A stretch of DNA of 64,000 nucleotides from a virus. Lineage: Duplodnaviria; Heunggongvirae; Uroviricota; Caudoviricetes. Positions 42,088 to 64,000 of this stretch are shown in pieces. A program made the position numbers and the translations under genes. The first letter of the stretch is position 1. Each line of letters begins with the position of its first letter. The DNA lies in IMG/VR virus record IMGVR_UViG_3300042402_002792; one strand, written 5' to 3'. The notes under the pieces were generated by a model. It did no database searches and was not told the DNA's origin. It saw only the letters and a program-made list of their open reading frames with translations.

Positions 42088-42116
42088 TTGACAACAACTA
42101 AAAATTAGTGTATATT
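42088..42116 (+). promoter_or_regulatory. Sigma70 promoter of tmRNA
   Basis: TTGACA-17-TATATT. Confidence 0.8.
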
Positions 42117-42122
42117 GTAAGT

Positions 42123-42496
42123 TAAGACTGTATGAAGTAGATTGAAAAGGATTCAAGACGCGAGTTCGAATCTCGCCAGGTCCACCATAAAGTACATTAG
42201 CCAACACCCGACATACTGGGATAGTAAGATGGCATTGCCGCTAGTGTATTTTATAATGGGCCTGCTCCGGTAATCGATTGGGTCAAGAGTAATGAAATGG
42301 ACAGTCCGGCAATGTAGAAGCCGTTAGGGTTGGGGTTACCCGGCCGAAGAAGCAAAAAAAGTAAATGCAAAAGCAAATACATTCGAGTATTTCACAGTTG
42401 ACTTCGACATTACAGCAATGAATGACGAGCAATTCGAAATGGCGGCCTAAGAAACCGCAACTCCGGGGTAGGACTTACCTTGTAAAATAAACAACC
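42123..42496 (+). ncRNA. ssrA: Circularly permuted (two-piece) tmRNA
   Basis: T-arm plus CAGGTCC-A-CCA (ends 42187) lies upstream of the 5' strand GGGCCTG (42258); 7-bp acceptor stem with G3.U70; tag frame ends NDEQFEMAA-stop. Confidence 0.88.
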
Positions 42497-42522
42497 ATAG
42501 GACCTTCGGGTCCTATCTTTTT
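42497..42522 (+). terminator. Intrinsic terminator after tmRNA
   Basis: ATAGGACC-TTCG-GGTCCTAT-CTTTTT. Confidence 0.85.
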
Positions 42523-42553
42523 GGCTAAATTAATTAAATTATCGCCTCGAAGT

Positions 42554-61720: not shown

Positions 61721-61912
61721 ATATACAATAGAGACTAGGTTGTACAAAAATTAGTTGTTTTTTAGCCACAATTAAAACAGTGGTTGACAAGAGAACTAAA
61801 TAAATGTACAATAGAGACAAGTTAGCAAACAATGTGATCCGCAAGTGTTGTAAAAATACAACAAAAAAAGATTCCAAAAGTTGTTGACAAGGGCACTGAA
61901 AGGTGCTACAAT
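61701..61912 (+). promoter_or_regulatory. Three tandem sigma70 promoters for the tRNA array
   Basis: TTGACA-17-TACAAT at 61701, 61784, 61884; each followed by AGA(G/T)AC(T/A)AG. Confidence 0.9.
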
Positions 61913-61971
61913 AGATACAAGTTAGTTAGGAATGGTCCTAGCTAATAACAAGGATTTTAAAGAGAAAGCAA

Positions 61972-62442: not shown

Positions 62443-62561
62443 GTATTAAAGCAGATTGCCGAACAGTCAAATGGCCTATGCCGATGAGTAGTCTGCTTTA
62501 ATACACATATTCTCTTTCCGCTCTTGACGCGGTCAAAAACGCATAGCGGAGAGTGTGTTAT
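62443..62561 (+). ncRNA. Two adjacent stem-bounded RNA cassettes
   Basis: GTATTAAAGCAGATTG/TAGTCTGCTTTAATAC and ACACA..CTCT..CCGCT/AGCGG.AGAG.TGTGT. Confidence 0.55.
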
Positions 62562-62568
62562 AAATTTT

Positions 62569-62657
62569 GGGGGCTGTTCTCTACGGCGGACTGTAAATCC
62601 GTTGCCTTAATATGTAGAGTGGCTGGCAATTAGGTTCGATTCCTTCAGTCCCCACCA
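62569..62657 (+). tRNA. tRNA-Tyr(GUA), D-armless atypical
   Basis: Anticodon arm GCGGA-CTGTAAA-TCCGT, TTCGATT loop, CCA; only about 9 nt where the D-arm should be. Confidence 0.6.
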
Positions 62658-62662
62658 GTTAT

Positions 62663-62738
62663 GCTCGGTTCGTCTATCGGTTTAGGACGCTGCCCTTTCA
62701 AGGCGGAAAGACGGGTTCGATTCCCGTACCGAGTACCA
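62663..62738 (+). tRNA. tRNA-Glu(UUC)
   Basis: Full cloverleaf, loop CTTTCAA, CCA. Confidence 0.93.
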
Positions 62739-62743
62739 AATTT

Positions 62744-62818
62744 GGTTCCAAAGTGTTCATGGACGCACACGACACTGTCACTGTCGAAGAAGGGGATCGT
62801 TACCCCTTGGGACCGCCA
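62744..62818 (+). tRNA. tRNA-Asp(GUC)
   Basis: Cloverleaf, loop CTGTCAC, variant T-loop ATCGTTA, G73, CCA. Confidence 0.9.
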
Positions 62819-62827
62819 TCTTTCTAT

Positions 62828-62906
62828 TCCGTGAAATCCAAGCATGGTGCAAGGACCTGACTGTTAATCAGTGATTAGGTGAGTTCGATCCTCACACACG
62901 GAGCCA
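62828..62906 (+). tRNA. tRNA-Asn(GUU)
   Basis: Loop CTGTTAA, T-arm GTGAG/CTCAC, G73, CCA. Confidence 0.9.
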
Positions 62907-62993
62907 TTATAGAAGCACATACAGATCCGCCCTAAGTCCCGGGGAGATAGCGCGGACACGTTGAAGGACTGTTTAAATGTGTTTCTATAATGG
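62904..62993 (+). ncRNA. Stem-bounded inter-tRNA cassette
   Basis: 17-bp stem CCATTATAGAAGCACAT/ATGTGTTTCTATAATGG. Confidence 0.7.
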
Positions 62994-63066
62994 GGGCAGT
63001 AGTGGGCTACGGGTAACCCTTGCAAGGTTGCTGACTACAAGGGTTCGATTCCCTGGGCTTCCACCA
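62992..63066 (+). tRNA. tRNA-Ala(UGC), shrunken D-arm
   Basis: G3.U70, loop CTTGCAA, D-arm reduced to GTAG-TGGG-CTAC, CCA. Confidence 0.65.
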
Positions 63067-63071
63067 AATTA

Positions 63072-63146
63072 GCTCTGTAAGCATTGCTGGCGATGCAGGC
63101 GCCTTGTAAGCGTCAGAATGGGGTTCGATTCCTCAACGGAGCACCA
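63072..63146 (+). tRNA. tRNA-Thr(UGU)
   Basis: Cloverleaf, loop CTTGTAA, CCA. Confidence 0.92.
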
Positions 63147-63151
63147 ACTAC

Positions 63152-63244
63152 GGAAGTGTGGCTGAGCTGGCTTAAGGCAGCAGGTTGCTAACCTGTCGAT
63201 TCAGATAACTGGGTCCGAGGGTTCGAATCCCTCCGCTTCCACCA
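63152..63244 (+). tRNA. tRNA-Ser(GCU)
   Basis: Long variable arm, loop TTGCTAA, CCA. Confidence 0.93.
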
Positions 63245-63250
63245 AACAAA

Positions 63251-63329
63251 CTGGATGTAATGTCAGTCAGGTCAGACGGCCGGCCTTGGAAGTCGGAGGT
63301 CGCAGGTTCGAATCCTGCCATCCAGACCA
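63251..63329 (+). tRNA. tRNA-Pro(UGG)
   Basis: C1-G72, loop CTTGGAA, CCA. Confidence 0.92.
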
Positions 63330-63334
63330 GTTTA

Positions 63335-63396
63335 AGGATGCTAACAGCAAAAATTTATACATTTGACTTTTAATCAAAACCGTAAAAATGCATCCT
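63335..63396 (+). ncRNA. Stand-alone Lys anticodon stem-loop mimic
   Basis: AGGATGC/GCATCCT closing stem enclosing TTTGA-CTTTTAA-TCAAA. Confidence 0.6.
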
Positions 63397-63429
63397 GTTT
63401 ATTTTAATCAATGTTCAAAGGAGAACGAC

Positions 63430-63486
63430 ATGAAACGTGCTAAACGTTAGTGTCATCCTAGACCCCCGTATGGTCCTGGATGGCAC
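63430..63486 (+). other. Mini-ORF MKRAKR plus adjacent hairpin
   Basis: AAAGGAG SD, ATG AAA CGT GCT AAA CGT TAG, then GTGTCATCC/GGATGGCAC stem. Confidence 0.55.
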
Positions 63487-63512
63487 GTAAAAGAAAATTA
63501 TTTACGAATCAT

Positions 63513-63588
63513 CCACAGCTGGCGTTAACGGTAGCGTACTCGGCTCTTAACCGATGAGGTGTCAGTTCGAATCTGACGCTGTGGACCA
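63513..63588 (+). tRNA. tRNA-Lys(CUU)
   Basis: Loop CTCTTAA, T-arm GTCAG/CTGAC, CCA. Confidence 0.9.
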
Positions 63589-63591
63589 TAT

Positions 63592-63666
63592 GGGGGTATA
63601 ACTTAGCGGCTAAAGTAGTAGGCTTTTAACCTATTAATCAGGGTTCGATTCCCTGTGCCCCTACCA
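63592..63666 (+). tRNA. tRNA-Lys(UUU)
   Basis: Loop CTTTTAA, cloverleaf, CCA. Confidence 0.93.
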
Positions 63667-63774
63667 TAAGCAAACACATTACTGACGCCTCGGCGAAGGG
63701 TTCCGGTTACCCCGTAGCGATTAATAACTAAGCCAGCAGTTGGGTTCGCTGGATGTAGTGTGTTTACTTATGGT
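63663..63774 (+). ncRNA. Stem-bounded inter-tRNA cassette
   Basis: 20-bp stem ACCATAAGCAAACACATTAC/GTAGTGTGTTTACTTATGGT (one mismatch, one G.U). Confidence 0.7.
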
Positions 63775-63846
63775 AAAGTAGCATAATGGTTGTGCAACAC
63801 CTTCATACGGTGCCCGGTGTGAGTTCGAATCTCACCTTTACCACCA
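63772..63846 (+). tRNA. tRNA with CAU anticodon (elongator Met or Ile2)
   Basis: Loop TTCATAC, G1-C72, CCA. Confidence 0.88.
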
Positions 63847-63857
63847 GGTTTTGTTAG

Positions 63858-63959
63858 AGTGTTAGCAAGTGAAGTCACGCTATAAAGGTTTCTTCGAAGG
63901 ACTGATATAGTAGAAGGTGAGGGTTCGATTCCCTGAAAATCTCAACAGGCGAGAACACT
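63858..63959 (+). ncRNA. Putative structured ncRNA with T-arm mimic
   Basis: AGTGTT/AACACT closing stem, GCTATA/TATAGT, AGGG-TTCGATT-CCCT. Confidence 0.45.
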
Positions 63960-64000
63960 GGATGAATCCCAAGTAACGTACCGAGTCCCGCTCGAGTTTA

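Follow-up and report, generated by a model that had tools for sequence, protein, structure and literature searches.

Introduction

Ever since T4, unexplained stable RNAs have been a familiar feature of phage tRNA clusters. Here we describe a family of stem-closed RNA cassettes found in a 64,000-nucleotide stretch of tailed-phage DNA (IMG/VR record IMGVR_UViG_3300042402_002792; hereafter the window, by which we mean this whole stretch), in which five such elements, numbered 1 to 5 by position, lie in a long array of tRNA genes, at the head of that array, and within a two-piece transfer-messenger RNA (tmRNA) gene. Each element pairs two arms around an interior, which we call the cargo, and the long terminal helix that recurs across the family is referred to as the handle. 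The T4 RNAs rnaC and rnaD (species 1 and 2) are likewise non-tRNA small RNAs in a phage tRNA cluster, adjoining tRNA genes and presumably released by tRNA processing; they are annotated as having no known function. However, their folds lack a 17–20-bp AU-rich handle, neither of the two covariance models described below (R1 and R2) matches the T4 locus, and T4 has two fixed RNAs whereas the window family has one handle and dozens of interchangeable cargos.

Several other described systems share parts of this anatomy. In the Y RNAs and YrlA, which associate with Ro60, a long conserved stem formed by the 5′ and 3′ ends encloses a variable body, and bacterial Y RNAs have a Ro-site motif, GNCGAAN0-1G (PMC4201824). 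Some of these bodies are tRNA-like and phage examples lie near tRNA genes, and the overall architecture is common to them and the cassettes. The cassettes nevertheless differ from YrlA (RF02553), in that GNCGAAN0-1G is absent from all five window arm pairs, no window cassette has any Rfam match even at E ≤ 10, and the window cargos are not tRNA-like, with no tRNA-model match inside them and a negative BLAST comparison. The intervening sequences of two-piece tmRNAs and of ribosomal RNA (rRNA; here removed by RNase III) are also closed by a stem, excised without religation, variable, and sporadic among relatives; in the cassettes, by contrast, the stem and even a cargo occur between ordinary tRNA genes as well, and we know of no description of such sharing with tRNA junctions for tmRNA or rRNA intervening sequences.

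Correia and nemis elements, which are miniature inverted-repeat transposable elements (MITEs), resemble the cassettes in the shortness of their terminal inverted repeats, in occurring at sites that may be filled or empty, and in being transcribed as hairpins within operons, and their inverted repeats fold into RNA hairpins that RNase III cleaves. The cassettes differ from them in their unrelated interiors, their confinement to tRNA arrays, and an RNA helix under selection, and no parent transposon was found; the TA/ATAT that flanks a cassette is palindromic, so that a MITE-like target-site duplication is not separable from an extension of the stem. The PeSLs of T4-type phages are conserved stem-loop modules in plastic regions, for which recombinational shuffling has been proposed, and combine a sigma-70-type promoter (TTGACA-N17-TATAAT-like) with a terminator stem (PMC2839356, PMC4122927). 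The cassettes instead lie inside tRNA transcripts, and the arms and cargos of elements 1–5 contain no −35/−10 pair at the required spacing. Finally, a processing stem for RNase III consists of about two turns (around 20 bp) of mostly Watson–Crick helix, a description that fits the handle, with its 17–21 bp and mode of 19.

A stem-closed RNA family confined to tRNA arrays and tmRNA genes

The relatives considered here include 47 loci (prefixed L below, as are further loci), which were fetched by exact match to the 3′ end of tRNA-Lys(UUU). Their arrays hold up to ~40 tRNAs, in an order heavily shuffled among relatives, with tRNA spacers that are either very short (1–13 nt) or long. We built a covariance model, R2, from 38 cassettes of relatives only, leaving out the window and all homologues of element 4, and scanned the 64 kb of the window with it on both strands at E ≤ 10. 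It matched at 63664–63773 (element 5; 42.9 bits, E 1.8e-7), at 42185–42259 (element 1; 28.4 bits, E 3e-4), and at 62904–62993 (element 4; 26.0 bits, E 1e-3), and otherwise only at weaker antisense images of these three. Since a model built without the window matches just three places in it, the likeness of the arms is above chance for AT-rich stems. Elements 2 and 3 are not detected by R2, which is anchored on CCA, and their tie to the family comes by comparison only (see below).

We also applied a sister model, R1, to 477 kb comprising the window, a complete 364-kb relative (G008), and the T4 tRNA locus, where it matched solely tRNA arrays and tmRNA intervening segments. All family matches in the complete relative fall in its tRNA array, and an independent inverted-repeat scan of the same genome placed its family-like stems all within ~6 kb of the array, on the tRNA strand. 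The family is thus confined to tRNA arrays and tmRNA genes; absent from Rfam and from the literature that we searched, it is apparently undescribed.

Within the window, the five stem-closed elements proposed by the initial annotation are indeed present, all on the + strand, at 42185–42259, 62443–62504, 62503–62558, 62904–62993, and 63664–63773, and each folds far better than shuffled sequence. RNAfold z scores are −3.06 for element 1 (folded as 42184–42262), −5.57 for element 2, −3.05 for element 3, −5.04 for element 4, and −4.10 for element 5, and for none of the five did any of 200 shuffles fold as well as the native sequence. The arm motifs originally read as AAA(G)YACAT(T) and AGTGTGYTTT also proved correct. 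Element 4 lies between tRNA-Asn(GUU) (62828–62906) and a tRNA-Ala(UGC)-like gene (62992–63066), with a 17-bp stem around a 56-nt cargo that forms a three-way junction, while element 5 lies between tRNA-Lys(UUU) (63592–63666) and tRNA-Met(CAU) (63772–63846), with a 19–20-bp stem, a C·A mismatch at pair 8, and a 72-nt cargo. In both, as had been noticed from the sequence at the outset, the helix takes in the CCA of the upstream tRNA (Asn or Lys(UUU)) together with the first G's of the next tRNA.

The handle is selected as an RNA helix

The consensus of the handle is CCA-UAU-R-N-AAACACAUUA / UAGUGUGUUU-N-Y-AUA-UGG, with a terminal helix of 17–20 bp that normally starts at the CCA of whichever tRNA or tRNA-like domain lies before it and reaches the first G of the next one, or stops a few bases short of that G; elements 1, 4, and 5 all begin at a CCA. 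The length of this closing helix is bimodal across 267 distinct long tRNA spacers, with a background of at most 10 bp and a separate group of 39 spacers at 15–21 bp (mode 19), and the long helices occur at no fewer than 14 different tRNA pairs. RNAalifold recovers the helix from an alignment of the family (A1), in which 8 of 13 pairs show compensatory double changes.

A position-resolved count over 29 distinct helices linked to tRNA-Lys(UUU) gives a more detailed picture of what is conserved. Pair 7 alternates between A-U and G-C, pair 8 is mismatched in 21 of the 29 (as A·C or C·A in 20), and pair 16 is U·G in 19. Once pair 8 is set aside, G·U stands to A·C as 35 to 1 in these helices, and the models score the sense strand above the antisense strand by ~5–19 bits. 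This wobble asymmetry, together with the higher sense-strand scores, shows that the transcript of tRNA sense is the RNA in which the helix is under selection. A DNA-level palindrome without strand preference was considered and rejected: a count that took no account of position gave 30 G·U to 25 A·C, but outside pair 8 the ratio is the 35 to 1 just given.

The outer end of the helix is informative as well. Extra bases separate the right arm from the tRNA that follows in seven cases, and even there six of the arms end in UGG or UGGU and one in UGA. This argues that pairing with the upstream discriminator-CCA belongs to the element itself and does not simply result from the G's that open the next tRNA; the pairing with CCA thus seems to be selected. 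Two other readings of the arms were tried and rejected. Right arms that resemble TATAAT do not have the right spacing to the tRNA start for a promoter, the motif is not general, and a promoter would leave the inverted copy unaccounted for; a T4 late-promoter reading of TATAAAAA fails because that sequence is present in only about half of the arms.

One exchangeable slot holds many cargos

The slot that the handle encloses may be empty, as a loop of 4–7 nt, or filled with 30 to more than 200 nt. At the junction from tRNA-Lys(UUU) to tRNA-Met, the arms are kept in 29 distinct relatives around unrelated cargos of 33–245 nt, while one relative (L047) has an empty site there, CCA-AUAU-GG, with a 4-nt spacer. 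Similarly, the junction from tRNA-Asn to tRNA-Ala is filled in the window, L026, L009, and L021/L040, and consists of only 5–8 nt in L028, L030, and L038. Filled and empty sites therefore coexist between identical tRNA pairs, the presence/absence polymorphism that the initial annotation had put forward as a check on its reading.

The same arms extend well beyond these loci. One exact 17-nt right arm is found in at least 120 stretches of viral contigs, and among the matches listed, 77 new loci contain 81 cassettes with the identical arm, whose cargos fall into 59 unrelated clusters; these 81 cassettes follow tRNA-Lys(UUU) 38 times, tRNA-Gln 11 times, tRNA-Glu 5 times, and other tRNAs in the remainder. 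The view that the elements share arms and vary in cargo, with the tmRNA intervening segment as one of their number, is supported by the R2 matches and greatly extended by these 59 clusters among 81 cassettes.

At the same time, individual cargos recur. The element 4 cassette is also present in L026 (again from tRNA-Asn to tRNA-Ala) and L052, and in L044 it lies between two tRNA-Leu genes; in its cargo, the stems and junction bases are constant while the loops vary. A 93-nt cargo, which we call beta, occurs at the Arg>Val, Thr>Met, and Gln>His junctions, and in L015 it immediately precedes tRNA-Gln, without a neighbouring tRNA on its upstream side; four sequences of it show nine compensatory pairs, and it has no Rfam match. 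Further recurrent cargo types are visible. Some cargos are therefore conserved, covarying structured RNAs that occupy different junctions in different phages. As a class, cargos have a GC content of 47%, compared with 37% for other spacers and 39% for the window. The earlier description of the interiors as structured stands for the element 4 cargo, with its conserved three-way junction, but not on average, as cargos alone fold with a mean z of −0.6 relative to shuffles.

Cargos as tRNA fragments or anti-tRNAs were also considered and rejected, a BLAST comparison of 39 cargos with ~1,000 array tRNAs being essentially negative. T-loop words (GGTTCGA) are enriched in the longer cargos, and the long cargos of some relatives carry them. 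Separately, many cargos that are otherwise unrelated share the short words YUGAC and GCAUAGC (window 62520–62550; L007, L011, L026, L052, L053), most strongly in hairpins of the element 3 type.

The tmRNA intervening segment is a further slot

The window encodes a two-piece (permuted) tmRNA at 42095–42541 (+), called by ARAGORN and matched by Rfam RF04321 at 83 bits, and element 1 is its intervening segment. A CCA at 42185–42187 is followed by the left arm (42188–42201), a 38-nt cargo (42202–42239), and the right arm (42240–42253), after which come UAAU and the tmRNA coding piece, from G42258. L039 carries the cargo of element 1 with 100% identity in a cassette flanked by tRNA-Glu and tRNA-Leu, away from its own tmRNA. 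Other stem-closed inserts occupy the tmRNA intervening segments of L003, L004, L006, L012, and L039, and the arms in the tmRNA slot of L005 show compensatory changes relative to those of the window. On these comparisons, the intervening segment behaves as one more CCA-to-G junction, occupied by different cassettes in different phages.

Previous work has described two-piece tmRNAs in phages of marine and aquatic origin (PMC9004378). The tmRNAs of the relatives match RF04321, and those of L012 (8893–9236) and L039 (10754–11172) are also above threshold on RF01850. It had been suggested that an element of this kind could explain how the tmRNA became permuted; this finds no support, as the relatives' tmRNAs fit established two-piece models and the segment is one more cassette slot. 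As a side observation, RF01850 is the betaproteobacterial two-piece tmRNA model, and its matches in L012 and L039 may hint at the host lineage of the group. A sigma-70-like promoter, similar to those before the array (see below), precedes the window tmRNA at 42089–42125 (+).

A cassette and a hairpin open the array

Elements 2 and 3 adjoin each other at the head of the array. Element 2 has a 17-bp stem, GUAUUAAAGCAGAUUGC / GUAGUCUGCUUUAAUAC, around a 28-nt cargo, with no CCA before it, and element 3 is a hairpin, ACACAU...CUCUUUCCGCU / AGCGGAGAG...UGUGU, of 5 + 9 bp with a bulge. At least 11 relatives open their arrays with this tandem, followed by an unusual tRNA-Tyr. The arms of the head-of-array cassette take the form GUAUUAAAGCA... 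/ ...UGCUUUAAUAC without CCA, and across 11 relatives 10 of 14 pairs show compensatory changes while the cargo is swapped. Element 2 is tied to the family by its cargo type, which recurs inside CCA-type cassettes of L014 and L250. Element 3 corresponds in relatives to a conserved hairpin, ACACAYUC...GAGUGUGU, directly after the element-2-type cassette; in L017, L028, L038, and L030 it is reduced to bare ACACA(C)AUUC-GNRA-GAGUGUGU, with a GNRA tetraloop and no cargo, and L030 carries compensatory changes. On this comparison, element 2 is the head-of-array version of the family stem, and element 3 a related short hairpin.

The tRNA-Tyr(GUA)-like gene that follows in the window (62569–62657, +) has a long extra arm and is conserved in relatives, where it again leads the series of tRNAs. 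With default settings ARAGORN does not call it; it emerges only at -ps85, where it is miscalled as Asn, and Rfam gives only a weak tRNA-Sec match (27.8 bits).

Setting of the array and neighbouring features

The window phage is a large lake myophage, with proteins ~38% identical to those of the Pelagibacter phage HTVC008M and the Methylophilales phage Melnitz. Its long tRNA array begins at ~62440 and continues onward, and blocks of the array are common to the window and many IMG/VR contigs, several of which are complete at 340–380 kb. No cultured phage with cassettes was found, as BLAST against isolates returned tRNA similarity only; contigs that share the window tmRNA carry no tRNA array, and a 191-aa neighbour protein used as query returned one locus, without tRNAs. 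A host origin of the arm motif was rejected, as 80 bacterial and archaeal loci with an exact left-arm match are chance hits, with the exception of L085. This 1,478-bp contig, binned in a metagenome-assembled genome (MAG) of Candidatus Planktophila, contains three real cassettes and is the sole such case among the 80; it is probably a phage fragment mis-binned with the Planktophila MAG, but could also be a faint hint to the host.

Several open reading frames (ORFs) are embedded in the arrays of relatives. A 191-aa ORF family inside the tRNA arrays of four loci (L044 5202–5777 and related) has a sub-threshold match to HNH endonucleases (E 1e-3), and its position recalls the homing endonuclease SegB of the T4 tRNA cluster. 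Other such ORFs encode a metallophosphoesterase, a radical SAM protein, and a nitroreductase, and no transposase or integrase was found among them. Sigma-70-like promoters (TTGACA-N17-TACAAT or TATATT) are present before the leader of the window array at 61795–61830 and 61882–61915 (+), with a shared downstream word, ACAAGTTAG.

Three further RNA features of the window array deserve mention. First, a 15-bp long-range pairing of ACCCCCGUAUGGUCC (63462–63476) with GGACCAUAUGGGGGU (63583–63597), on the + strand, encloses the whole of tRNA-Lys(CUU): the former lies in a conserved hairpin ~23 nt upstream of this tRNA, and the latter straddles the junction between tRNA-Lys(CUU) and tRNA-Lys(UUU). 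The pairing lies just past a mini-ORF, MKRAKR (63431–63451), and is kept in at least nine relatives, with L038 showing a compensatory one-base insertion on both sides. Second, another stem-closed element at 63330–63405 (+) consists of a 7-bp stem, AGGAUGC, followed by UA and ACAGCAAA. It weakly matches the Dictyostelium Class I RNA (RF01414; 21 bits, E 0.88), and its homologues begin 1–3 nt past many different tRNAs in relatives, sometimes with two copies in a locus; cassette cargos as carriers of the ACAGCAA signature of this other stem-closed family were rejected, with 0 of 39 having it. Third, a conserved non-tRNA RNA after tRNA-Met (63848–64000, +), which runs beyond the end of the window, has a T-arm-like GAGGGUUCGAUUCCCUG and a conserved 3′ extension, and a homologue of it is the cargo within the Lys(UUU)>Met cassette of L020 and L042.

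Proposed excision by tRNA processing and exchange by recombination

RNase P generates the 5′ ends of tRNAs, as well as that of the tmRNA coding piece, CCA ends are matured by endo- and exonucleases, and RNase III cuts helices of ~20 bp; it takes part in processing of the T4 tRNA cluster and cuts the T4 species 1 RNA. Against this background, the explanation that we favour, and to which we would give even credence, is that the elements are modular small-RNA cassettes of freshwater jumbo phages, housed in tRNA arrays and two-piece tmRNA genes, excised by tRNA processing, sharing one handle, and shuffled by recombination. The cassettes would be co-transcribed with the tRNAs and released by the tRNA-processing machinery, with RNase P cutting at the 5′ end of the next tRNA and the upstream cut made either by the CCA-maturing nuclease or by RNase III, the latter within the ~20-bp helix. 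A cassette placed exactly between CCA and the next G1 would thereby come free as a hairpin with paired ends, and the product would be a small RNA whose paired ends protect it and present all cargos with one recognition surface. The near-invariant arms would double as homology through which cargos are swapped, gained, and lost among co-infecting phages, and the tmRNA intervening segment would be used because it is another CCA-to-G junction that is excised anyway. As tRNA order is scrambled among relatives, the swapping is most simply attributed to recombination through the 20-nt arms. The proposal that a common processing signal releases a library of small RNAs, one of two put forward at the outset, fits the anatomy: a sense-strand stem from CCA to the 5′ end of the next tRNA, and cargo types that covary.

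Several observations weigh against this explanation. Members without CCA exist (element 2 and some relatives), many cargos are singletons, cargo alone folds on average no better than shuffles, and there are cargo-free versions, such as the Glu–Leu cassette of L038 with its 6-nt loop; the near-invariance of the arms exceeds what a generic RNase III site would need; and in four complete relatives neither an encoded RNase III nor a match to the Pfam TROVE domain (PF05731) was found. The cargo-free versions indicate that the stem has a role of its own, and the helix may be the only functional part, with many cargos as passengers. Taken together with the recurrent covarying cargos, the evidence on cargo function is mixed. 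The near-invariant arm sequence and the fixed mismatch in turn suggest a specific reader, which may be an enzyme or a binding protein.

The alternative that survives best, though we would still call it doubtful, follows directly from these points. Here the helix alone would be functional, as a stretch of double-stranded RNA that signals processing or acts as an insulator (host RNase III, for example, might cut it as it cuts the stems that flank rRNA), splits the transcript into blocks, and frees the upstream CCA, with the interiors as neutral filler or selfish passengers. The tight clustering of helix length at 17–21 bp, or about two turns, agrees well with such a role, as does the persistence of cargo-free forms (the 6-nt loop in L038 and the GNRA-capped element 3 hairpins), the unremarkable folding of cargo by itself, and the fact that the Lys>Met cargo differs in almost every relative; as no phage RNase III was found in the four complete relatives, the host enzyme would serve, consistent with its part in T4 tRNA-cluster processing and in the cutting of species 1 RNA. 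A pure processing site does not, however, account for several cargo types that are conserved across phages and junctions with compensatory changes, for the raised GC content of the cargos, or for arms whose sequence is near-invariant beyond the needs of pairing, and most tRNAs in these arrays sit only 1–10 nt apart without needing any such site.

We regard as unlikely the possibility that a single dedicated RNA-binding protein, of phage or host, docks on the handle, much as Ro60 binds the stem of Y RNAs, with the cargos acting as tRNA-like pieces, decoys, or guides. Arm sequence invariance and a mismatch fixed as A·C or C·A at pair 8 (20 of 29 helices) do resemble a specific recognition surface, paired ends with a variable body are the Y RNA architecture (PMC4201824), T-loop words are enriched in longer cargos, and the same array holds the second stem-closed family with the ACAGCAAA signature at 63330–63405. 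Yet the Ro-site motif of bacterial Y RNAs, GNCGAAN0-1G (PMC4201824), is absent from the arms, the four complete relatives have no TROVE match, and no candidate protein was identified.

Least probable of all, and in our judgement very improbable, is MITE-like selfish DNA whose terminal inverted repeats are the arms and whose insertion target is the AT-rich TA/ATAT spacer that separates CCA from the next tRNA: inverted repeats of fixed length, filled and empty sites at identical tRNA pairs (such as CCA-AUAU-GG in L047), an identical cassette at different junctions, and a flanking TA that could be a palindromic target duplication are all in keeping with it, but MITE copies share their interior whereas identical-arm cassettes mostly do not (59 clusters in 81 copies, among the matches listed), the remaining ~340 kb of a complete genome contains no family member, the wobble asymmetry reflects selection on a sense-strand RNA helix, the array-embedded ORFs offer no transposase or integrase and only the sub-threshold HNH match as a hint, and ordinary recombination is enough where tRNA order is shuffled. 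The initial annotation's other proposal, of a tiny mobile element that targets tRNA ends, thus holds in the weak sense that sites are polymorphic for presence and the same cassette is found at different junctions, but not in the sense of a transposon, given members without CCA, mostly unrelated interiors, the shuffled tRNA order, and the lack of a clear target duplication or transposase; with tRNA order this heavily shuffled, recombination explains the pattern at least as well as transposition.

Implications for jumbo phage biology

Returning to excision by tRNA processing and exchange by recombination, the favoured explanation can be extended to a full RNA cassette system, an RNA-level counterpart of integron cassettes, in which one handle serves a large and fast-turning library that is expressed as part of the tRNA transcript, excised by tRNA processing, recognised by a common partner, and recombined between phages through its arms. 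On this view, diversifying selection would act on the hypervariable cargo at the tRNA-Lys(UUU) site, which is filled in nearly every relative; such cargos might, for instance, be decoys for tRNA-targeting host defences or inhibit them. We offer this extension as speculation and consider it unlikely to hold.

The unexplained RNAs of phage tRNA clusters are, in these phages, a modular system that is widespread in uncultivated jumbo phages, with one stem, at least 59 interiors, and a place in two-piece tmRNA as well as among tRNAs. The system now has a searchable signature, consisting of a covariance model and a 17-nt arm present in at least 120 viral contigs, and it adds several new covarying RNA motifs. 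It also offers a natural setting in which to study the punctuation of polycistronic tRNA transcripts and the exchange of small-RNA genes between viruses. If it is true that the cargos are anti-defence RNAs, or that the handle binds a dedicated protein, the cassettes would represent a new layer of phage–host RNA biology.

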